Origin: Candidatus Altiarchaeota archaeon
GTDB taxonomy: Archaea; Altiarchaeota; Altiarchaeia; IMC4; SCGC-AAA252-I15
Assembly: GCA_043804895.1 (NCBI GenBank)
Contig: JAZDIN010000045.1
Location: 1 to 22,055 of the forward strand
Direction: 5' to 3'
DNA length: 22,055 nucleotides
The position numbers were made by a program, and so were the translations under genes. Each line of letters opens with the position of its first letter. The first letter of the stretch is position 1. Below the pieces are notes generated by a model. The model saw only the letters and a program-made list of their open reading frames with translations. It did not search any database and had not been told where the DNA came from. Positions 4,917 through 22,055 of the stretch are shown one piece after another.

Positions 4917-5534
4917 ATGAGGTATGCGGCCTCCGTGTTCTGCGTCTGCATCCTATGCGGCTGCATTCAAGGGGGAGGCGACGCCAGCACAGCACCCAAA
5001 TTGGAGGGGGTGAGAGAGATGAAAGTTCTTTTTGTAGTGGCTCAGAAGGATTTCAGGGATGAAGAATATCTTACGCCGAAAGGAATCCTCGAGAGGGCCC
5101 ACGTCGCAGTCAGGACAGCAAGCCCTGACGGTGGAGTGTGCGAAGGCATGCTCGGGGCGAAAGTTAAGGCTGATATGAAAATCAGCGATGCAAACTACAG
5201 GGACTACGATGCCATCGTCGTGGTCGGAGGGGCTGGAAGCCCCAAATACCTCTGGGGGGACAGCAGACTCCAGAGCATTCTGAAGTCAGCCTATGATGAC
5301 GGTAAGGTCGTGGCAGGGATATGCCTCTCCGGCGCCGTACTGGCGAAGGCCGGAGTGCTTGAAGGCAAGAGGGCGACAGTGTTCGAGACCCCTGAGACTC
5401 TGAAGGCCCTCCGAGAGGGGGGAGCAGAGTATGTCGGTGGAGATTTGGTTGTTGATGGTAAGGTTATAACGGCCTCCGGCCCGCAGGCTGTTGACCGGTT
5501 CGGCCAGAACATATTAAATATGTTGGAACAGTAA
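4917..5534 (+). CDS. DJ-1/PfpI family protein (possible lipoprotein signal)
   Basis: DFRDEEY, YDAIVVVGGAG, AGICLS (nucleophile-elbow Cys), VVDGKVITASGP. N-terminal ILCGC. Alternative start at MKVLFVV. Confidence 0.92.
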   Translation: MRYAASVFCVCILCGCIQGGGDASTAPKLEGVREMKVLFVVAQKDFRDEEYLTPKGILERAHVAVRTASPDGGVCEGMLGAKVKADMKISDANYRDYDAIVVVGGAGSPKYLWGDSRLQSILKSAYDDGKVVAGICLSGAVLAKAGVLEGKRATVFETPETLKALREGGAEYVGGDLVVDGKVITASGPQAVDRFGQNILNMLEQ

Positions 5535-13552: not shown

Positions 13553-14170
13553 CTAGTCTATCGTGTGGCATTCTTGTTTGAGTTGGTTGAGTTGTGTTAC
13601 GTCGAGCACGTTCGGGTTTAGGGGTATGATGAGCTTCGACTCTGAGGTGCTTATCCTGTCTCTCACCTGCTGGACGAGTCTGAGGACTATCTGGAAGTTG
13701 TTGTTGCTCACCAAATACTCAAGGCCTTCTAGGAGTATGATGCTCCTACTGTGCGCCTCTATGAAGTTGTTGATGAACATACTCACCTCCTGCGGCCCGA
13801 AAATAGAGGGGATGTCTTCCCCGGCCCGGAGCTTGCTCAACCAACAGACTTCAGCATTAGCTAGTTCAGGATTACATCTCAAAGCCTTAGGATTCGCTCG
13901 GCTGATGTAAAGGCCTCGGGGCACGTCCTTCAGCTCGCGGGTGAAAATCCCCATGGCCTTCTCGCACTTCTCCTCGAGAATCAGGTACGCGGACCCAACA
14001 TCCAACCTGACATCACCATCCGCTTTAGAGGATGCTGAACCCACCCGGAGGGCCTCCTCCCTCCGCTTCAGAATCTCATCCTCCTTCCGGAGGGCCGTCT
14101 CCTCAGAGTTCAGCTTCGCAATCTCCCTCCTAAGCTCCTCAGCAAGAACCTCCCTATCCCCATCAAACAA
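13553..14170 (-). CDS. DUF835 domain protein with N-terminal coiled coil
   Basis: GLYISRANP, CWLSK, IILLEGLEYLVSNNNFQIVLRLVQQVRD, LIIPLNP. Confidence 0.88.
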   Translation of the reverse strand: MFDGDREVLAEELRREIAKLNSEETALRKEDEILKRREEALRVGSASSKADGDVRLDVGSAYLILEEKCEKAMGIFTRELKDVPRGLYISRANPKALRCNPELANAEVCWLSKLRAGEDIPSIFGPQEVSMFINNFIEAHSRSIILLEGLEYLVSNNNFQIVLRLVQQVRDRISTSESKLIIPLNPNVLDVTQLNQLKQECHTID

Positions 14171-14214
14171 GACAAAACACCAGTAATACTATTAACAGAC
14201 GCTAAAAAAAGGGA

Positions 14215-14296
14215 TTCACCAGCATCGAGTGTTAAATAGTTTGTTAAGTTTAAGCAGGGTATAATCTAAGGAGGAACTAGGGGGTTTTAACCTTGT
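14215..14296 (+). repeat. Degenerate copy R0 of the cassette-boundary repeat
   Basis: TTCACCAGCATCGAGTGTTAAATAGTTTGTTAAGTTTAAG matches R2 at 32 of 40 positions by my manual alignment. Tail GGAACTAGGGG(G)TTTTAACCTTGT is shared with R1. Confidence 0.8.
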
Positions 14297-14332
14297 ATTT
14301 CCTGAATTTAATTGTATTGTCTGGATAATCAA

Positions 14333-14533
14333 ATACTGCGCCCTGAAGGGCGCAGTATGACTTACAATGTGGCCGAGACTGATGTCTCGGACACACACCG
14401 GAGGCTAAGAGCCTCCGCTGTGACACGCTCAAAATGCAGACAAGCAGAACAAACACAAGAGGTGCAAACGCGAGATGGGATCCTTACGCGATTCCTCTGC
14501 GACCTGAAGGTTGCAGTATCCTCGCATGTTTGT
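14333..14533. ncRNA. Candidate structured RNA or DNA hairpin cluster, family unknown
   Basis: Perfect stems at 14333-14358, 14373-14390 and 14399-14417. A multibranch domain is closed by ACAAACA..GAGG/CCTC..TGTTTGT (14449-14533) and contains a second TGAA-loop hairpin (14497-14516). Confidence 0.5.
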
Positions 14534-14551
14534 AATGAAACGCATTGAGGA

Positions 14552-14971
14552 ATGATGAAGAACAAGTCTTATTCAGGGTCATGCAGCGTCAAAGATGCCG
14601 ACATAGGCTATGTAGACCTGAAAAATTCAGTAATCCACATAGTAGAATCCTCTGACGGGCCGTATTATATGCAAAAGGATGCCAATGGAAAGGATATACT
14701 GACAGACATCCATGTCCTCGGAGCATGCCAACTCCATGTCGTGGATGATTCCGACTCCTTCAAAGAGAGGTTCTCTCCGGAGTTGACGTCAACGCTGAAG
14801 CGCCTAAGGCGCGCAGGAAAAAACAACATCCTGCTGCATTACAACCCCACAAGCCCCAACTCGGACTTCATCCACAATGTCGCCGAGGAAATGGGATTCG
14901 ACAAAAAGGAGGAGGGGTTAATGCAACTGGACCTGAAAAAGCACAACAAACACCTAAAACTGACGAAATAA
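14552..14971 (+). CDS. Hypothetical protein; C-terminus weakly GNAT-like
   Basis: 139-aa ORF preceded by GAGG. LRRAGKNNILLHYNP...AEEMGF resembles the GNAT C-terminal motif. Confidence 0.65.
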   Translation: MMKNKSYSGSCSVKDADIGYVDLKNSVIHIVESSDGPYYMQKDANGKDILTDIHVLGACQLHVVDDSDSFKERFSPELTSTLKRLRRAGKNNILLHYNPTSPNSDFIHNVAEEMGFDKKEEGLMQLDLKKHNKHLKLTK

Positions 14972-15206
14972 TTTTAGCCTTCGACGCCAGCACCTTTGTT
15001 GACGTCTATTTCTGCAACAGAGTGAGGGTATGAAAAACAACACCAGTGTCTGTAGTTAATGCAAGCATAAAATACCCCCTAAGGTGAACTACTACCTACA
15101 CTGCAGACAACCCAGAAATAAGGGGTTTTAAATCACACTCCAATCTAAATCGTCAAGCCCGGTAACAGGTAACAGTTTGCGTTGTGTTTTATTCAGGGAG
15201 GGGGAA

Positions 15207-15683
15207 ATGGATTATATGGCCGTTAAGACGACTGTTCTGCTTGTGGACGACAACGAGGACCTTCTCGTGTCGATTAAGGACGGCCTGGAATCCTACGACA
15301 GTGCATATGTGGTTGACTGCGTCAAGGACGCTTCCGAATGCCTAAAGTACGTCGAGCAAAAGAACCCAGACCTGGTTCTACTCAACATTATGCTCCCGGA
15401 CATGGACGGATTCACCCTCAGGGCGAAGCTGAAGATGACGGATGCTAAGGACGTTCCCGTCATCTACCTGACTGCGAAGTACGACATCGACATGACGAGG
15501 AAGATAGGCATGCTGACCGCGGACGACTTCATAGTGAAGCCTATAAACATGCATGAACTCATCCTTCGGATTCAGAAAGTCCTGATGTGGCGCTGCTACC
15601 GTAATGGAAAAACACCAAGGCCGCATATGGGCGGAAAGCGAAGGAATCGACAAAGGAGCCACAACCAACACACCACTGCCTAA
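15207..15683 (+). CDS. Receiver (REC) domain protein lacking the phosphoacceptor Asp, basic C-terminal tail
   Basis: VLLVDDNED, PDLVLLNIMLPDMDG, PVIYLTA, DDFIVKP. Purine-rich GGGAGGGG precedes ATG 15207. Confidence 0.9.
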   Translation: MDYMAVKTTVLLVDDNEDLLVSIKDGLESYDSAYVVDCVKDASECLKYVEQKNPDLVLLNIMLPDMDGFTLRAKLKMTDAKDVPVIYLTAKYDIDMTRKIGMLTADDFIVKPINMHELILRIQKVLMWRCYRNGKTPRPHMGGKRRNRQRSHNQHTTA

Positions 15684-15730
15684 AGGCTGACAAATATGTG
15701 CTTTATGTTCTTATACTGCGTAATAGGTCT

Positions 15731-15880
15731 ATGAAGAATAATAAATACAGCCTGAAATGCAATTATTTTATGGGGGGTCAATGCACCAATACTCTTACCG
15801 AGTCGACGTTTGTTGTAGATGATTCCACAAGATCTGAATACTTCTGCAGGACCTGCACTTACCGGCCACAAAACATGTGA
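15731..15880 (+). CDS. Small four-cysteine hypothetical protein
   Basis: MKNNKYSLKCNYFMGGQCTN...YFCRTCTYRPQNM, 49 aa, co-oriented with its neighbours. Confidence 0.45.
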   Translation: MKNNKYSLKCNYFMGGQCTNTLTESTFVVDDSTRSEYFCRTCTYRPQNM

Positions 15881-15943
15881 TCCAGGGGGGCCGGTATCTT
15901 TCCCAGTTATTGGCTTATCTTCAGGTAGTCGCTATATACTCAC

Positions 15944-16297
15944 ATGAAAGTCATTAACCGGGCCGGCCGCGGCAGATCCAGGGACGGCAGATCAGGCGAG
16001 TCTGAACGAGGCGGATTCGGGGGATTCGACAGGAGAGGACCGGAGAATAGGTTTTCAGGCGGGTTCCGTAGGGGGGAGCCTGGCGGAAGGTCTAGGCCTC
16101 AGATGCATGAAGCAGTCTGTTCCAAGTGCAAGCAACGGTGTGAAGTCCCTTTCAAACCTTCACCCACTAAACCCGTTTACTGCAGCGCATGTTTCAGGAA
16201 GGACGAGCCGGAAAAAAGGCCGTCAAATCTGTCTGATGAGCTTGGCAGAATCAACGACAAACTCGATAGGATAATGCGGGCGCTGGATCTGGGTTAA
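15944..16297 (+). CDS. CxxC-x17-CxxC domain protein with RG/RGG-rich N-terminus and short coiled C-terminus
   Basis: QMHEAVCSKCKQRCEVPFKPSPTKPVYCSACF; C-terminal ELGRINDKLDRIMRAL. Confidence 0.9.
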   Translation: MKVINRAGRGRSRDGRSGESERGGFGGFDRRGPENRFSGGFRRGEPGGRSRPQMHEAVCSKCKQRCEVPFKPSPTKPVYCSACFRKDEPEKRPSNLSDELGRINDKLDRIMRALDLG

Positions 16298-16592
16298 ACA
16301 ACCCACCCCCAAAGTAACAACAATTATGCGATTTATAAACGCAGACGTCCTACTAAAGGACTATATCGAGCATTGTTTAGGTCAGGTGGCACTTAAATCT
16401 TGTTCTTTAAAAAAAAAATAATGGGGTAATTAAGCAAATTCGGGTATTAAACGCTCAAACGCACTGTAAACGTCGGAGATTGCCATAACGGTCCGATTAT
16501 TCATGTTGAATGCGAAACTGACGTGATAAACACTCACGGCTACTTTAAGCCGATATTAAATGAGAAATTAAAAAATTAAGGAGGTGAATTAA

Positions 16593-16763
16593 ATGCCAGG
16601 AAGAGATTTCGGAGGAGGAGGTTTTGACAGGGGCCCAAGGGAGATGACCGATGCCGTATGCAGCGAATGCGGCGCATCATGCCAGGTTCCGTTCAAGCCA
16701 ACCGAAGGAAAACCAGTATACTGCAGGGAATGCTACGCGAAAAGAAGACCAAAACGCTTCTAA
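16593..16763 (+). CDS. Second CxxC-x17-CxxC domain protein (56 aa, not in the ORF track)
   Basis: Manual translation: MPGRDFGGGGFDRGPREMTDAVCSECGASCQVPFKPTEGKPVYCRECYAKRRPKRF*. Strong SD AAGGAGGTGA at 16578-16587. Confidence 0.93.
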   Translation: MPGRDFGGGGFDRGPREMTDAVCSECGASCQVPFKPTEGKPVYCRECYAKRRPKRF

Positions 16764-16882
16764 AGCTTGACAGTAGAGTGGGAATACCGTACAATAACTA
16801 ATTCTTTATTTTATAAACCCCCTCAGCCAACGGCACACACCCGACACATAATTTTCCGGAGATACCCCACACACACGATAAA

Positions 16883-16963
16883 TTCGCCCCGATCGGGACT
16901 AGAACAGTTTGTTCAGTTTAGGTGGGGGAAACTCTGAATAGGAACTAGGGGTTTTAACCTTGT
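16883..16963 (+). repeat. Cassette-boundary repeat R1
   Basis: TTCGCCCCGATCGGGACTAGAACAGTTTGTTCAGTTTAGGTGGGGGAAAC followed by tail GGAACTAGGGGTTTTAACCTTGT. Confidence 0.95.
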
Positions 16964-17051
16964 GTGTGTGCGTTTTTTGGCGGGGGGGGACTTTTACTAG
17001 TTCCTCTGTTAACTCACCAGCCATACCCTGTTTTTACCATTTGTTGTCAAT

Positions 17052-17891
17052 TTACTTAGCTTTGGTAAATATTGCAGCGGTGAAGTCAATCTGGTCCAAG
17101 ATTGGTTCATTACCAACCATAAACTCGCCAGTTTCTCCACTCACACAATCTGTCTTTTGTACCGCTCTCCCTAGGAAAGTATATGAAGGACAGTAAGTTT
17201 GGCTAGCTGTAAGAGAACCATCCCCTACTTCAACGCAAAGACCGACATAGTTTTGCCAAGATGGTTGCATCCCTCCTACCTCATCTATACATCCTTGTGC
17301 GCTTCTCACATACAACCATTCACTCCCTCCAGTAGATTGACTTTCACTTTGGCAATGTTCACCACTCATTTCCCATGCATTATATAGCACCTTGAAGTAG
17401 TTGGCACAAGCAGTACAAACTCCTGCTACTGGGTCACAAACGGCAACTTGTGGTTTGTTTCCTCCTTTGTTGCCGGCATTACCTGCCCCACAACCGGTAG
17501 AGTCAACACATTCTACAGCACCAACACACGCCTTTGCCGACGGGCTCCAGCCACAGGCGTTTACAAGATAGTCCTGTATGTTCGGGTCGTATCTCCAATT
17601 ACAATCACCGTTCTGATAGTTGAGGTTTAACCCACTAGCCCCACAGGTCTGACCTAGACCTATCGGGCATTGAATCACTTCCCGACTACCTGCAATTTTA
17701 CTAACATCTGCTGAATTAGGACTATCTGAGCCCTTATAGAAGAAGTGGCACATATGTTTTGCAGGGCCCACGAGTATACCCTTTCCGCCTACTGCGGCAG
17801 TCGACAACGTGTCCGGCCACTTGGCCCCGAACCAAACAACCACGCCAATAGCAACTAACACTATTACCGCCCCAGTCAAGAGATTAGCCAT
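17052..17891 (-). CDS. Membrane-anchored cysteine-rich hypothetical protein
   Basis: MANLLTGAVIVLVAIGVVVWFG TM anchor, then many Cys and Gly residues. SD GGAGGT upstream of ATG 17891. Confidence 0.82.
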   Translation of the reverse strand: MANLLTGAVIVLVAIGVVVWFGAKWPDTLSTAAVGGKGILVGPAKHMCHFFYKGSDSPNSADVSKIAGSREVIQCPIGLGQTCGASGLNLNYQNGDCNWRYDPNIQDYLVNACGWSPSAKACVGAVECVDSTGCGAGNAGNKGGNKPQVAVCDPVAGVCTACANYFKVLYNAWEMSGEHCQSESQSTGGSEWLYVRSAQGCIDEVGGMQPSWQNYVGLCVEVGDGSLTASQTYCPSYTFLGRAVQKTDCVSGETGEFMVGNEPILDQIDFTAAIFTKAK

Positions 17892-18015
17892 CTTTTGAAC
17901 CTCCAATGTATAGTATATATATCATCGGATTAGTTAAAAGACCTGCGATTGTCTCATCTACCACCATAAATCTGGGGTAGAGTATAATCTTTCCTTTTTT
18001 CGGTACCCTGATAAA

Positions 18016-18065
18016 TTCGCCCCGATCGGGTTTTAAACAGTTTGTTCAGTTTAAGTGTGGAAAAC
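18016..18065 (+). repeat. Cassette-boundary repeat R2
   Basis: TTCGCCCCGATCGGGTTTTAAACAGTTTGTTCAGTTTAAGTGTGGAAAAC. The upstream TTCCTTTTTTCGG.AC.CTGATAA is shared with R4. Confidence 0.93.
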
Positions 18066-18097
18066 TTTCTATATGACTACACTTCCAAGGTATGTAG

Positions 18098-19048
18098 TCA
18101 TATGTCTTTAAGGTTTTTTCCTAGCTTATCATAGGATCTTAACATCAGGTCAATGCTCGGCCTTATGTTGCTCTCTTTTTGATATGCATGGAGGGAGGAA
18201 TAGTACTCTCTGTCGGACTTAACTTCAATATTCACTGGAGGTAGTCCGTGTTTCAACAGTATGTTGTTCATTAGTAGTCTTCCGACCCTGCCGTTTCCGT
18301 CCTCAAACGGGTGGATGCTCTCGAATTGGTTGTGGACGACTGCTGCAAGGACAATGGGGTGATACCTGTTTTTGCTCTTTTTGTACCACTCAACAAGCTC
18401 TTTCAGAAGACTCAACACCTTATTCTGCGGTGCGCCCCTGTGGACCACCTCTCCAAGCCTGTTTTTCACAACTACTTCCACTCCTGGGGGACGCATCCTG
18501 CCTGCGAACCTCTTGGAGTTCTTGAAGACAATCCTGTGCAAATCCGTCATCAATTCGATTGACAGGTGTTCCTTCGTTTCCCTAACCAACTTGACCGCGT
18601 CAGATACTCCATACGTCTCAGCAATCTCATCCTTGGCTTTGTCAGGCCACTTATCATTCTCTAGTATACCTTTAACTTCGGCTAAATTCACAGTCGAACC
18701 TTCTATTGCGTTCGTATCATATGCGAAAAGCTCCGTGAACCTAACCCACTGCTCTTCAGACAGATGGCTTATTTTGATGTCGTGCTTTCCTACCAAGGAC
18801 TTGATAGATGCCATCTCCTGAGGGGACAGAACAGTCTTCAGGGGGTCGCGGATGTTCTTGTACGACTGCGCCTGCCACATCAGCTCCTTCTCAGCAGCAG
18901 GCCGCAACGATGCAACCTCCTTCTCGGTGAGGTTGACTCCGAGGTACTTCCTCAGCCTCTTAACTTTGCCTTCGTGACGGAAAGAATGAGCCGCATAATA
19001 GAACTTCTTCCCGCCGCGCTTCTGAACCTCAATGTGCATCAATAACAC
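18098..19048 (-). CDS. Fic family protein
   Basis: Canonical Fic motif HPFEDGNGRVGR. DTNAIEG resembles the (S/T)xxxE(G/N) inhibitory motif. N-terminal KKFYYAAHSFR...RKYLG domain. Start may be ATG 19039. Confidence 0.95.
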   Translation of the reverse strand: MLLMHIEVQKRGGKKFYYAAHSFRHEGKVKRLRKYLGVNLTEKEVASLRPAAEKELMWQAQSYKNIRDPLKTVLSPQEMASIKSLVGKHDIKISHLSEEQWVRFTELFAYDTNAIEGSTVNLAEVKGILENDKWPDKAKDEIAETYGVSDAVKLVRETKEHLSIELMTDLHRIVFKNSKRFAGRMRPPGVEVVVKNRLGEVVHRGAPQNKVLSLLKELVEWYKKSKNRYHPIVLAAVVHNQFESIHPFEDGNGRVGRLLMNNILLKHGLPPVNIEVKSDREYYSSLHAYQKESNIRPSIDLMLRSYDKLGKNLKDI

Positions 19049-19092
19049 TATATGACTACAAGTTTAAATATGATTACAGGTATATGACTACA
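19048..19092 (-). promoter_or_regulatory. Fic promoter region: TATA-like box bracketed by ATATGA(C/T)TACA direct repeats
   Basis: Copies at 19050-19060, 19068-19078 and 19082-19092, with TTTAAATA between the first two. Confidence 0.6.
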
Positions 19093-19181
19093 GATAGAAC
19101 AGAGTGTTCAATCCCCTACGGGTGTTCGGACAACATAAAGAATAACGCCCATGGATACATTATAACTGCGAATTGGCTAGC

Positions 19182-19265
19182 TTCGCCCGCATCGGGACTA
19201 GAACAAAATGTTCGGTTTAAAGGGGCGTACTTTTAGGAGGGGGGGAATAAGGGTTTTAACCCCTG
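19182..19265 (+). repeat. Cassette-boundary repeat R3
   Basis: TTCGCCCGCATCGGGACTAGAACAAAATGTTCGGTTTAAAGGGGCGTAC followed by tail GGGTTTTAACCC. Confidence 0.95.
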
Positions 19266-19284
19266 TTCATATACTGTAGATGAG

Positions 19285-20400
19285 ATGGTGGTTTGGTTGC
19301 GTATACTAGGTGGTTTATTTTTACTGTTTTTGGTGTGCGGGTGTATAACTTCACAAATAGAGGAGACAACGACAATAAGAACACCTGAACCCGCAGTTTC
19401 CTCCACTACCCTCACCCCCACAACTTCAACTGTTTGCTACATTATCCGCAAGGGAGAGTCGATTAAAGAAGTACCGCCAAATGCCTGTTATATTATCGCA
19501 GATGAAGAGGAGCAGAAGAGTTTATCCTACTGTGATCATTTTGAAGGGGGGGAAAGGGATGAGTGCTATACGGAAATAGCAAGGCTGAATCAGGATATAA
19601 GATTATGTAACAAAATAGAGGTGAAAAAATCAAAATACGTTTGCAAGTATGGTCTGACACTAATCCTTTTAAGGGACAGGAATATAACTGTTGAAAAGGC
19701 ACTAGAGTTTTGTGAAGAAATGGGTGAAGCAGATATAAGAGATTTTCCTGAAAGCCTGTGTATTAAAAGTGTTGCTGTTGTTTCTGATCAGCCCCTCCTT
19801 AACCAAGATGCCGGCAAACAAATAACTCAAGAGGCAGACCTTAAAGAAGTAAGGAGCTGTTGGACTGAATCGTTTGAGTTTGAAGACAAAAAAATTGACC
19901 TTGTTGAAATTTCTTATGGCCCCCCACAGGACTGTTTTTCTGGATGTTTTCACAGTTCATTTGGGGGGATAATCGAAAATGGCGAATCTTTTCAGATTTG
20001 CAATTTCAATTACAATGCTGAGGGGAATAATTTACAGCTTTACCCTAAACCGCAAATTTTAGCCGGCCTTGTTGACTCTATGCAGATTTATTCAAACGTT
20101 TCTTTTGGAGGTGGATATAACTATTACAGAACTTTTTCTGACTGTTTTATAAGATATATGCACGAAATCAATTTGACTGAAGACTTTTGCTCAAACCTTT
20201 CAGATGAAGGGGAAAAACAAACATGCTTTGATTTGCTGATAGTTGACCAGAAAAAGTATGAGGATTGTGACAAGATTTATTTACCAAGATTAAGAGACCA
20301 TTGTTTTCTTCTTTCTGCTTTCAAATCAAAGGAAATCAATAAATGTGGGGGAATTTCTGATCTTGGAACCAGAGAATATTGCATTAACACGTTAGACTAA
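19285..20400 (+). CDS. Putative lipoprotein with Thr-rich linker and Cys-paired helical repeats
   Basis: LFLLFLVCGC signal; repeated C..(I/L/F).....(R/K)D.C(Y/F/I) units. Visibly more AT-rich than the left half of the window. Confidence 0.85.
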   Translation: MVVWLRILGGLFLLFLVCGCITSQIEETTTIRTPEPAVSSTTLTPTTSTVCYIIRKGESIKEVPPNACYIIADEEEQKSLSYCDHFEGGERDECYTEIARLNQDIRLCNKIEVKKSKYVCKYGLTLILLRDRNITVEKALEFCEEMGEADIRDFPESLCIKSVAVVSDQPLLNQDAGKQITQEADLKEVRSCWTESFEFEDKKIDLVEISYGPPQDCFSGCFHSSFGGIIENGESFQICNFNYNAEGNNLQLYPKPQILAGLVDSMQIYSNVSFGGGYNYYRTFSDCFIRYMHEINLTEDFCSNLSDEGEKQTCFDLLIVDQKKYEDCDKIYLPRLRDHCFLLSAFKSKEINKCGGISDLGTREYCINTLD

Positions 20401-20574
20401 TATAAACGTTCAAATAACAGTGAAAAGCTCTCAAACGGATTCTATAATAAAAAATTAGTCTAGTAGTCCTAAACTGGTATCCCGTCGTCTTATTGGGGTA
20501 TATCGGTCTCTCCATCGGATATGGAGTGCTGCATCCTTCTATAAAATCATTCCTTTTTTCGGAACTCTGATAAC

Positions 20575-20623
20575 TTCGCCCGCATCGGGACTAGAACAAT
20601 CTGTTCGGTTATGGCGGGGATAC
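20575..20623 (+). repeat. Cassette-boundary repeat R4
   Basis: TTCGCCCGCATCGGGACTAGAACAATCTGTTCGGTTATGGCGGGGATAC. Confidence 0.95.
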
Positions 20624-20689
20624 TCATTAGGAGTATTTATATACTTAGGTATCCCCATGTATACTTAGGAGTACTATCTGAGGGATTAC

Positions 20690-20932
20690 ATGGACACAAC
20701 AACGATAAAGCTCTATGGTGAGACGAAATTACAGTTGAACCAGTTTAGGGAATACAAAAACGAAAGCTATGACGAAATAGTAAAGAAACTAGTTTATATA
20801 GCCAGGACCGTGGGAAAAGACCCTAAACTAAGCAGTCAAACAGTCCGTGACATAGAGGCAGCCAGAGAAAGACTACGGAATGGAGAATTCTACAGTGAAC
20901 AGCAAGTTGCCAAGATGCTGGGCTTAAAGTGA
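20690..20932 (+). CDS. Putative antitoxin (ribbon-helix-helix-like N-terminus)
   Basis: MDTTTIKL...L..F....NESYDEIVKKL; C-terminal GEFYSEQQVAKMLGL. Overlaps the RelE-type gene by 4 nt (GTGA). Confidence 0.85.
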   Translation: MDTTTIKLYGETKLQLNQFREYKNESYDEIVKKLVYIARTVGKDPKLSSQTVRDIEAARERLRNGEFYSEQQVAKMLGLK

Positions 20933-21189
20933 AACAGGAGTACACGGTAAAGTTTGACACAGATGCGACAGAGGAGTTAGTGAAGCTGCCGCACGACATA
21001 TCTCGCAGAGTATACAAGAAGATAATTGAATCCAAACAAGACCCATACCATTATTGGGTGAGGCTAGAAGGCAGAACAGACTACAGGATACGAGTCGGAG
21101 ACTATCGGGCAATAGCAGACATCATCGAAAACGAAAAACTAATCTATGTGACCAAAATCGGACACAGAAAAACAATCTACCAAGAATAA
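20929..21189 (+). CDS. RelE/ParE family type II toxin
   Basis: YTVKFDTDATEELVKLP, RLEGRTDYRIRVGDYRAI, VTKIGHRKTIY. Confidence 0.93.
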   Translation: MKQEYTVKFDTDATEELVKLPHDISRRVYKKIIESKQDPYHYWVRLEGRTDYRIRVGDYRAIADIIENEKLIYVTKIGHRKTIYQE

Positions 21190-21307
21190 CCATTACTCCT
21201 CAATATCTTACCCCTAGAATCAGAACACAGTGTTCGAATCCCAGAGGGGGTTTTAACAGCACAAGCTATAGCCGCTATAAACCCCATATACTCTCTAATC
21301 AGCTGAT

Positions 21308-21356
21308 ATCGCCCGCATCGGGACTAGAACAAAATGTTCGGTTTAGAGGGGGATAC
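21308..21356 (+). repeat. Cassette-boundary repeat R5
   Basis: ATCGCCCGCATCGGGACTAGAACAAAATGTTCGGTTTAGAGGGGGATAC. Confidence 0.95.
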
Positions 21357-21468
21357 TTCCATAGCCTATCTGGGATACGTATGGATGGCTAGGGGTCCAC
21401 TGCCAAACACTGCATGTAATCCCCGAATTCTTATATCCTTATACACCCAATATATTGATTGGATATTG

Positions 21469-21762
21469 ATGAAAAGCATCACTCAGATTAGGAGGATACT
21501 CCAAAAGCGGAAGGAAGGTTTACATAAGGAATATGGAGTTAGTGAGATTGGGGTCTTCGGGTCTTTTGTGAGGGGGCAGCAGAATAGGCGCAGCGATGTC
21601 GACATACTCGTGGATTTCACCAAAACTCCTGACCTGTTCGAACTTATCAGGTTGGAGAACAGCCTAAGACGCTCGCTCGGCAGAAAAGTAGACCTTGTGA
21701 GAAAAGGCGGAATTAGACCTGAACTTCGGAGGAACATACTGTCCGAGGCAGTGATTATATGA
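21469..21762 (+). CDS. Minimal nucleotidyltransferase (MNT/MntA-type antitoxin)
   Basis: YGVSEIGVFGSFVRGQQNRRSDVDILVDF...LGRKVDLV. Real start likely ATG 21469 (MKSITQ), since the longer ORF runs through repeat R5. Confidence 0.93.
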   Translation: MKSITQIRRILQKRKEGLHKEYGVSEIGVFGSFVRGQQNRRSDVDILVDFTKTPDLFELIRLENSLRRSLGRKVDLVRKGGIRPELRRNILSEAVII

Positions 21763-22055
21763 GGAGAAAGCACAGCCTATATGTGAAAGACATCCTGGAC
21801 GCCATCACTCAGACAGAAAAGTTCGTTGACAGGATGAGTTACCCAGAATTCCAAGCAGATGATAGGACATCCAGCGCCGTTGTGAGAAAACTGGAGATAA
21901 TCGGCGAGGCAGCCAAGAACATACCCCTAGAAATCAGGCAGAAAAACAAGACCATACCCTGGACGGACATGGCCAAGACAAGGGATAAAATAATCCACGG
22001 ATACTTTGGGGTTGACTACGACGTAATCTGGAAAACGGTCAAAGAAAGGCTGCCA
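21759..22055 (+). CDS. HEPN/DUF86 (HepT-like) RNase toxin, 3'-truncated by the window
   Basis: Manual translation: MRRKHSLYVKDILDAI...LEIIGEAAKNIP...IPWTDMAKTRDKIIHGYFGVDYDVIW, with an Rx4HxY motif. ATGA overlap with the MNT stop. Confidence 0.93.
   Translation, partial: MRRKHSLYVKDILDAITQTEKFVDRMSYPEFQADDRTSSAVVRKLEIIGEAAKNIPLEIRQKNKTIPWTDMAKTRDKIIHGYFGVDYDVIWKTVKERLP

Follow-up and report, generated by a model that had tools for sequence, protein, structure and literature searches.

Tycheposons of Prochlorococcus are tandem islands at tRNA genes that are built by tyrosine integrases (bioRxiv 10.1101/2020.12.28.424599). As far as the description in that account extends, the archaeal locus analysed here resembles them in its direct repeats, which are partial tRNA 3' ends, in successive insertions at one site, in the remnants and cargo units that lie between the partial tRNAs, and in the presence, in one relative (G042), of an integrase-bearing element that shares the site. 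Set against the same description, the units of our array are cassettes of 1.1-1.4 kb that encode no integrase, the repeat has about 45 conserved bases in addition to those of its tRNA part, an inverted second site is present on some cassettes at a fixed distance, and the array is not seen beside its tRNA because the contig ends. A further integrase type, the 'suicidal' SSV type, is described in PMC7253208.

A second point of comparison is the integron attC site, whose features are described in PMC8946536, together with the CALINs, which account for most of the published archaeal integrons (PMC9668308). In the features treated in these two reports, the present array is similar in that its cassettes are small, for the most part promoter-independent and rich in toxin-antitoxin genes, that those with a second arm end in an imperfect inverted repeat of about 120 nt, and that the array has no integrase beside it. 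It departs from the same features in lacking both a long foldable stem and covariation; moreover its core is tRNA-derived, conservation passes the outer box, the second arm occurs at some boundaries only, and no IntI was found. Lambda-type attP sites, for their part, consist of a core crossover region with arm-type recombinase-binding sites at fixed distances, about 150-250 bp in total. The locus described here likewise combines a core with a further putative recombinase-binding site on an arm carried by the element; unlike the lambda arrangement, this arm site is an inverted near-copy of the palindrome next to the core rather than a distinct arm-type motif, and its binding by a recombinase is a proposal. 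A literature search, with supplements (e.g. data S3 of PMC9668308) outside its scope, found no published description of the module reported below.

The window is a stretch of 22,055 nt that forms a whole contig (C45) in the genome of an uncultured member of the Altiarchaeota (G000; 1,583,362 bases, 88.7% complete). Two inverted palindromes had been noticed in it at a constant distance from a repeat. We describe here how each of these is the outer arm of a conserved docking site of about 150 bases, with which some small toxin-antitoxin cassettes end.

Results

An array of small cassettes separated by tRNA-derived repeats

The last 5 kb of the window are an array of small, low-G+C cassettes, mostly toxin-antitoxin-like, across which the G+C fraction drops from 0.50-0.55 to 0.38-0.47. 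The cassettes are separated by a direct repeat (R) of about 60 bp, comprising a core that, read on the minus strand, corresponds to the 3' end of a tRNA gene, the palindrome GAACA-N3-TGTTC and some 20 further conserved bases (Table 1). The cores of R3, R4 and R5 match over 15 nt, exactly, the 3' end of the tRNA-Arg(gcg) gene of the same genome, which lies at the end of its contig, and the R1-type core has 14 nt in common with the tRNA-Asp of a congener (G037). No tRNA gene was found in the window, where the array runs off the contig end. With the G037 tRNA-Asp as query, no orthologue was found in G000, where only short 3'-end matches were returned.

Table 1. Repeats, modules and cassette genes of the array, in window coordinates
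Feature	Position	Strand	Description
R1 repeat	16877..16939	+	without partner; tRNA-Asp-type core
Cassette gene	17052..17906	-	284-aa protein, no Pfam family
R2 repeat	18010..18072	+	without partner; degenerate palindrome; left arm resembles that of R4
Cassette gene	18098..19048	-	316-aa Fic/DOC-domain protein
P3 partner half-site	19097..19122	+	palindrome, tRNA T-loop-like stretch and short G+C dyad; inverted, diverged copy of the repeat core
M3 spacer	19123..19182		homologous to the spacers of other modules, no indel
R3 repeat	19176..19236	+	palindrome 19201-19213
R3 core	19183..19197	-	15-nt identity with the tRNA-Arg(gcg) 3' end (contig C52)
Cassette gene	19285..20400	+	371-aa protein, no Pfam family
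R4 repeat	20569..20629	+	without partner; left arm resembles that of R2
Cassette	20690..21189	+	DUF7557 gene and ParE-type toxin gene
P5 partner half-site	21223..21250	+	palindrome; module alignment
M5 spacer	21251..21308		module alignment; interior comparison
R5 repeat	21303..21363	+	palindrome 21327-21339
R5 core	21309..21323	-	15 nt of the tRNA-Arg 3' end, as in R3
Cassette	21334..22055	+	nucleotidyltransferase (MNT-like) and HepT-like ribonuclease; runs off the contig end

An integrase had been considered for the 316-aa gene next to P3 and was rejected, the product being a Fic/DOC protein. Operator-like direct repeats (19052-19092) and an inverted repeat (18073-18101) flank this gene. The Fic cassette is present at two loci in G000, with 80% protein identity, and in all five Fic loci that have a partner-type site beside the gene (C45, C4, G042, G043 and G038:C73) the 5' end of the gene points toward that site. 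The Fic gene of G038:C73 is a more distant one.

Some boundaries carry an inverted second palindrome at a constant distance

The palindrome occurs six times without mismatch in the window, starting at 16902, 19097, 19201, 20594, 21223 and 21327, as against a mean of 0.03 in shuffles of the window, not one of which (0/100) reached six. The original prediction placed partner sequences at 19097 and 21223, exactly 104 bp upstream of the palindromes of R3 and R5, and likened them to the reverse complement of the repeat. Both sequences are there, both start-to-start distances (19097 to 19201 and 21223 to 21327) are exactly 104, and the partners are indeed inverted, diverged copies of the repeat core. 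Genome-wide frequency, which the prediction had singled out as its check, is low: the 1.58 Mb hold 13 matches, namely the six of the window, two in repeat copies on contig C4 and five unrelated ones, and a third module, on C4, also has the spacing of 104.

Partners are confined to two of the five boundaries in the window (M3 and M5). As had been reported, R1, R2 and R4 lack one: within 400 bp of these repeats a search allowing up to one mismatch gave no partner, a model of the whole module matched them over its repeat half only, and no second arm was detected. Of 17 repeat copies in one listing, only four have the partner at 104 bp. Many repeats remain without it despite the modules that model searches added at other loci, so a partner is not required at every boundary. 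Where present, as on the Fic and ParE cassettes here and on Fic and MazE-PIN cassettes in relatives, the extra arm consists of a conserved spacer of about 58 nt followed by the partner, that is, the inverted and diverged palindrome copy with its T-loop-like stretch.

Modules of different cassettes and genera are homologous

We aligned four modules, from the Fic cassettes on C45, on C4 and in G042 (which belongs to another genus) and from the ParE cassette. They align without a gap over 166 columns at a mean column identity of 75%, and the intervening DNA, which had been described as not obviously similar, is in fact homologous throughout. The 58-nt interiors are 48-69% identical, compared with about 27% for shuffles; five of the six pairs beat all 2000 shuffles, and the sixth, with 28/58 identical positions, falls below the shuffle maximum of 33. 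The G042 module, the fourth, again has a spacing of 104.

A sequence-only model built from five modules was searched over 61 genomes of the phylum and found further modules. Distances in the model alignment were taken from the 3' arm of the partner to the core, 78 nt being equivalent to a spacing of 104 and 70 nt to one of 96. The longer class comprises seven modules (the three of G000, the G042 Fic module, two in G038 and one in G039) and the shorter one five (G043:C19, G045, G047 and two in G041), with a single module, G042:C7b, at 79 nt (spacing 105). Thus in the set from two genera the spacing is 104 in seven of eight modules and 105 in the eighth, while the 96 class belongs to five modules of other genera; weaker model matches range roughly from 94 to 107. 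Over 16 modules the mean majority fraction was 0.85 in the partner palindrome, 0.75 in the core and 0.59 in the interior, values that are inflated because the model used to select and align the matches had itself been built from modules. The polarity of the module relative to R is identical in every copy found. Alignment establishes the module as homologous between cassettes and between genera, its length as conserved within lineages and the partner palindrome as its best-conserved part.

An 18-nt pattern run across the phylum at three mismatches matched a reversed control equally often, so only its matches with two mismatches or fewer were used. A metagenome pattern scan returned at least 118 loci, with one weak repeat-profile match (E 9e-4) among the matches listed, and all were taken as chance. 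Homologues of the ParE cassette in G040, G034, G009 and G044 are in no case followed by the module, although the G040 and G044 contigs end too close to the cassette for one to show. The G034 homologue is flanked by a different repeat.

The same arm lies behind tRNA genes in relatives

In three relatives an intron-bearing tRNA gene occupies the position of R: tRNA-Asp in G037, tRNA-Asn in G041 and tRNA-Ser in G043. By sequence comparison, these relatives carry the same arm directly 3' of real tRNA genes. In G041 the arm is found once beside the tRNA and a second time after one more cassette, which means that a cassette carries at least one of these copies, and the unusual T-loop variant of the G041 partner is that of the local tRNA-Asn at 11/11 positions. 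The position of the partner in G047 is where a predicted intron-bearing tRNA has its end.

A candidate integrase in one relative

Searches of G000, at its 88.7% completeness, with PF00589, PF00239 and PF01797 gave no match, nor was a resolvase or invertase matched. Among 21 genomes of the family, ten have PF00589 matches, at 21 loci. Apart from an element in G042, none of these has a repeat or module within about 1.5 kb; the repeat profile gave one match (E 0.045) over all 21, and the module model gave none at the 16 compared with it. The order of features in G042 is R, a MazE-PIN cassette, the module, an element of about 10 kb and an R-like site. This element encodes a Dcm methylase, a Vsr endonuclease and a 350-aa protein matching PF00589 at 1.4e-18 (minus strand, L267:5021-6073), and its boundaries have in common an 11-nt core and one 20-nt arm, 80% identical, and no more.

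Discussion

We lean towards the view that the array is derived from a tRNA gene and that its partner-bearing boundaries are composite att sites of the attP type, served by a recombinase acting in trans. Partner, spacer, core and palindrome would then form one att site of about 150 bp, with partner and spacer as its cassette-borne arm, in an array lacking its own integrase. The recombinase, for which a tyrosine integrase like that on the G042 element appears the best candidate, would bind both inverted palindromes while a cassette is inserted or excised at the tRNA-derived core, and the 104-bp distance, passed on together with the arm, would be set by the architecture of this putative complex. 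Such a recombinase probably has in the partner a second binding site, in inverted orientation.

This bears on the interpretation offered with the original prediction, part of which stands. A composite recombination site fits well, since partner, spacer and repeat are conserved as a single module where cassettes end, and in relatives this module also adjoins real tRNA genes. The suggestion that the distance represents about 10 helical turns is weak: the 104 and 96 classes differ by 8 bp, short of a full turn, common ancestry accounts for part of the agreement in length, and strict helical phasing found no support across the modules compared. The fixed spacing is inherited as part of the docking site. 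An invertible segment was also put forward to explain the mixed orientations of the cassettes, and this part finds no support. In such a switch inverted sites would allow a recombinase to flip either the segment of about 91 bp or entire cassettes, and the array does contain mixed gene orientations and a recombinase-type palindrome in inverted copies. Yet the 5' end of the Fic gene faces the partner-type site in every locus where one lies beside it, the module has one polarity relative to R throughout, and no invertase or other recombinase gene is adjacent. A segment of 91 bp is moreover very short for inversion, and we regard this explanation as barely credible.

A relic is a more serious alternative, albeit an unlikely one. 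The partner would be a degraded piece of a tRNA 3' end or the scar of an old att site, copied passively along with its cassette and now without function, and the 104 bp would reflect recent common descent. The homology of the modules along their whole length is as this predicts, and so are the likeness of the partner to a T loop and, after it, the 3' portion of a tRNA, the predicted tRNA that ends at the partner position in G047, the different spacings of other lineages and the many boundaries without a partner. Passive decay sits poorly, however, with a partner palindrome that over 16 copies from several genera is better conserved than the spacer, with four copies free of indels though their interiors differ at 31-52% of positions, and with the G041 partner, which carries the variant T loop of the local tRNA-Asn. 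That partner and repeat are instead the outer and inner boxes of an integron-type attC, an imperfect palindrome folding as a single strand in a CALIN recombined by an integron integrase, seems to us quite improbable. The layout does agree: a box pair interrupted by a short unpaired spacer occurs twice, in inverted orientation, over about 117 nt at cassette 3' ends, and toxin-antitoxin genes abound in the cassettes. In integrons an imperfect palindrome of 57-141 nt closes each cassette, whereas here one is present at two of the five boundaries of the window. RNAalifold returned long-range pairing in its consensus, and CALINs are on record in archaea. Against this, minimum-energy folds of the single strands contain local hairpins only (z-scores -1.0 to -2.35) instead of the long attC stem with its unpaired central spacer and extrahelical bases, complementarity ends after about 12 bp with a 58-nt interior that is not self-complementary, the long-range pairs show no covariation (76.0% of cells paired, 76.5% in shuffles), conservation runs about 20 nt past the outer box, and the core is a tRNA 3' end. 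The lack of a PF00589 match in G000 points the same way, although a missing IntI does not by itself exclude a CALIN, since CALINs lack an integrase by definition. The outer box differs in all five repeats, at one position, from what we take to be the canonical attC consensus.

Another proposal is that the palindromes serve a dimeric transcription factor as operators, or belong to a structured RNA, in either case with a link to the expression of the cassettes. P3 is 49 bp from the Fic start codon, on its upstream side, R3, R4 and R5 each have a plus-strand gene downstream, and the spacer contains an invariant TATA-like tetranucleotide. P5, on the other hand, comes after ParE, the genes facing R1 and R2 do so with their 3' ends, and the orientation of the module follows R rather than the genes. 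As for a functional RNA, a permissive Rfam search of 14000-22055 gave four matches, all with E above 7, neither local nor long-range pairs covary above shuffles, and no reading frame is conserved across the module, none being open in all four copies. We hold a regulatory or RNA element to be very unlikely. A MITE or transposon with terminal inverted repeats was also considered and rejected: no target-site duplication is visible at the ends of M3 or M5, the right arm (R) occurs alone many times with its left half conserved, and modules are found only at cassette ends or beside tRNA genes.

Returning to the composite att site, a broader and more tentative reading is that the Altiarchaeota possess an undescribed, integron-like mode of gene capture. 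Toxin-antitoxin cassettes without a recombinase would carry a bipartite att site that imitates the T loop and 3' end of a tRNA, with two inverted, putatively recombinase-binding palindromes 104 (or 96) bp apart, and a tyrosine integrase from a separate element of about 10 kb would mobilise them in trans, the target being the tRNA gene (Arg, Asp, Asn or Ser) that the core matches. Whatever the fate of this wider proposal, the full docking site of one family of integrase-less cassettes behind tRNA genes is now defined, from core and palindrome through the spacer to the inverted second palindrome, and its comparison across genera shows constraint on both length and sequence. A relative supplies a named candidate integrase, so that the mechanism becomes testable with defined DNA, and the module model is a tool with which such arrays can be sought in other archaea.

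Conserved modules at cassette boundaries

Genome G000 of this archaeon (1.58 Mb in 71 contigs, 88.7% complete, the window being all of contig C45) holds 13 copies of the GAACA-N3-TGTTC palindrome: six in the window, two in repeat copies on contig C4, and five that are unrelated. Chance would put 0.03 in the window, and no shuffle among 100 reached six. As first noted, the palindromes of repeats R3 and R5 are each preceded at exactly 104 bp, start to start, by an inverted partner (P3, P5), and R1, R2 and R4 are partnerless, with none found at up to one mismatch within 400 bp. On C4 a third partner, matching with one mismatch, precedes repeat C4a by exactly 104 bp; this repeat terminates a second Fic cassette, whose Fic protein is 80% identical to that of the window. 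The fourth, also at 104 bp, stands beside a Fic orthologue in G042, a genome of another genus.

The intervening sequences had been thought dissimilar, which proved wrong. Four modules of partner, spacer and repeat (M3, M5, C4a and the G042 Fic module) align over 166 columns with zero gaps at a mean column identity of 75%. Their 58-nt interiors are 48-69% identical compared with ~27% in shuffles, five of the six pairs exceeding all 2000 shuffles and one not. Given this homology, the common 104-bp length is in the first place inherited; the indel-free alignment of such diverged modules nevertheless suggests a length constraint, judging by usual indel-to-substitution ratios.

A sequence-only covariance model built on five modules was used to search 61 genomes of the phylum and individual loci, recovering further modules in relatives. 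Spacing from the 3' arm of the partner to the core, read off the model alignment in window coordinates, was 78 nt (equivalent to 104) in seven modules (three in G000, the G042 Fic module, two on G038:C73, one on G039:C4), 79 nt in G042:C7b, 70 nt (equivalent to 96) in five (G043:C19, G045, G047, two in G041), and 74-83 nt in weaker matches. Module length is thus kept within lineages and is not universal. The proposed fixed spacing of about ten helical turns is weakly supported, as the 104 and 96 classes differ by 8 bp, which is no whole turn. Across 16 modules, picked and aligned by the model itself, the mean majority fraction was highest in the partner palindrome (0.85), followed by the core (0.75) and spacer (0.59).

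Single-strand folds of the modules contain small local hairpins and no long stem (z -1.0 to -2.35). An RNAalifold consensus joins partner and repeat through ~12 long-range pairs without covariation, and pairing in a 31-row alignment matched that of shuffles for both long-range pairs (76.0% vs 76.5%) and local hairpins (81.6% vs 81.7%). The complementarity therefore reflects conserved sequence in two orientations, leaving an attC-like fold or RNA unsupported, and fits two putative protein-binding sites. An Rfam search over 14000-22055 gave no match with E below 7, and the module has no conserved reading frame.

Features with coordinates in the window and at related loci
Feature	Location	Position	Remark
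Palindrome	window	16902	
Palindrome, P3	window	19097	
Palindrome, R3	window	19201	
Palindrome	window	20594	
Palindrome, P5	window	21223	
Palindrome, R5	window	21327	
Degenerate repeat copy	window	14214-14259	weak; profile E 0.097
Small treble-clef zinc-finger genes	window	15944-16297, 16593-16763	
G-run, T-run, AAC(C) motif	window	14283-14296, 15122-15133, 16948-16960, 19249-19262, 21247-21258	just 3' of several repeats and within P5
Inverted repeat at Fic gene	window	18073-18101	retained; spans stop codon
Direct copies of same 9-nt motif	window	19052-19092	two or three, upstream of Fic, around TATA-like box
Palindrome site	C4 of G000	~5085-5107	T-loop-like flanks
Palindrome site	C4 of G000	43568-43609	T-loop-like half on either side
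Self-complementary insertion, ~57 nt	L240 (G038:C73)	~1486-1545	splits one module between spacer and core

tRNA origin of the repeat core

The cores of R3, R4 and R5 are identical over 15 nt, on the minus strand, to the 3' end of an intron-bearing tRNA-Arg(gcg) gene at the end of contig C52. R1 and R2 carry a second core type, which has 14 nt in common with the 3' terminus of tRNA-Asp(gtc) from the congeneric genome G037; no orthologue was found in the G000 assembly with this tRNA-Asp as query. At three loci the repeat position is taken by an intron-bearing, minus-strand tRNA gene (tRNA-Asp in G037, tRNA-Asn in G041, tRNA-Ser in G043), which places spacer and partner directly 3' of the tRNA gene. 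The G041 arm (spacer plus partner) adjoins the tRNA and repeats ~960 bp on, beside a same-core repeat and with a PIN-type cassette in between, so at least one copy is cassette-borne rather than native flank. The unusual T-loop variant seen in tRNA-Asn at this locus is also that of the G041 partner (11/11).

Cassette array

A repeat profile search of G000 found 10 strong ~60-bp copies (E <=1.1e-6), five on C45, four on C4 and one on C29. Repeats in the window separate five units, which encode a 284-aa protein of no assigned family; a 316-aa Fic/DOC protein, whose identity rules this gene out as an integrase; a 371-aa protein, again of no family; a DUF7557 protein with a ParE-type toxin; and a nucleotidyltransferase with a HepT-like ribonuclease, this last unit extending past the contig end. 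Within the array, G+C is down to 0.38-0.47 from 0.50-0.55. The degenerate repeat copy suggests that the array formerly began ~2.6 kb further left, ahead of a response-regulator gene and the two zinc-finger genes. The recurrent G-run, T-run, AAC(C) motif is a possible promoter element. Together, the Fic gene and its motifs recur at 17 loci (L166-L182) from 16 further genomes of the phylum. Many of these loci lack the repeat, and the unit looks like a self-regulated, mobile Fic module. A DUF7557-ParE cassette at L219 (G034:C63, another genus) shares 68% DNA identity with that of the window and has a different direct repeat on both sides; cassette cargo appears common to arrays with different boundary sites.

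Search for a recombinase

PF00589 (tyrosine integrases), PF00239 and PF01797 have no match in G000, an incomplete assembly with arrays at contig ends. PF00589 matches occur at 21 loci in 10 of 21 family genomes. Within ~1.5 kb, the repeat profile gave one match at E 0.045 over all 21, and the module model gave none over 16 of them; apart from G042:C7, neither repeat nor module was found beside these genes. Read in module orientation, G042:C7 carries a repeat, a MazE-PIN cassette, a module, a ~10-kb element and an R-like site whose tRNA-Asp-type core bears a T-loop. The element encodes a Dcm methylase, a Vsr endonuclease and a 350-aa tyrosine recombinase (PF00589, 1.4e-18). Since its ends share just an 11-nt core and one arm pair 80% identical over 20 nt, a tie to the module system is only suggestive. 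A G038 contig opens with a module, after which comes the arm sequence found beside this element, a hint that such elements drop into assembly gaps. Separately, five relatives (L196-L200) have XerA-like recombinase genes (269-284-aa open frames, PF00589 E 1e-38 to 1e-46), all with the catalytic-domain match 430-650 bp from the contig start and three with short repeated motifs upstream; repeat DNA near a replication origin may be breaking these assemblies.

Discussion

The geometry is most simply read as integration of an element at the 3' end of a tRNA gene. Internal boundaries would then each form a complete attP-like junction, in which the tRNA-derived core joins one arm to the other arm of the next unit. 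The first arm would comprise the palindrome and ~20 conserved nt. The second comes in at least two kinds among cassettes: spacer plus partner, at the Fic and ParE cassettes of the window and at Fic and MazE-PIN cassettes in relatives, and a different, shorter kind common to R2 and R4.

The main rival reading is that the partner is a passive relic, in which case homology accounts for the equal lengths and many boundaries would simply lack a partner, as they do; the conservation profile, with the partner palindrome best conserved, speaks against it. An integron attC site fails on the absence of a long stem and of covariation and on a core derived from tRNA, and the outer boxes of the repeat depart from the canonical consensus. 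Among published systems, attC nonetheless comes closest in layout and cargo (PMC9668308, PMC8946536). An invertible segment, once offered as a possible cause of the mixed cassette orientations, finds no support, since the Fic 5' end faces the partner-type site in all five Fic loci that have one and module polarity relative to the repeat is constant in all copies. A regulatory role is possible for individual sites, although site positions relative to genes do not fit it.

Repeats made of partial tRNAs, and tandem insertion at tRNA genes, are familiar from earlier work (tycheposon preprint, bioRxiv 10.1101/2020.12.28.424599). Archaeal integrons have been published, Altiarchaeota appearing only as a tree root in the available sections (PMC9668308), and in the literature searched, toxin-antitoxin cassettes that lack an integrase and carry a bipartite T-loop-like att module are not described. 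The new elements are the architecture of the complete site with its length classes, a candidate integrase and the association with four tRNA species (Arg, Asp, Asn, Ser). ARAGORN predicted 10 tRNA genes in G000 without introns allowed versus 26 with them allowed (16 with predicted introns). As most tRNA genes require this setting, standard tRNA scans overlook both these genes and the attachment sites in this lineage.
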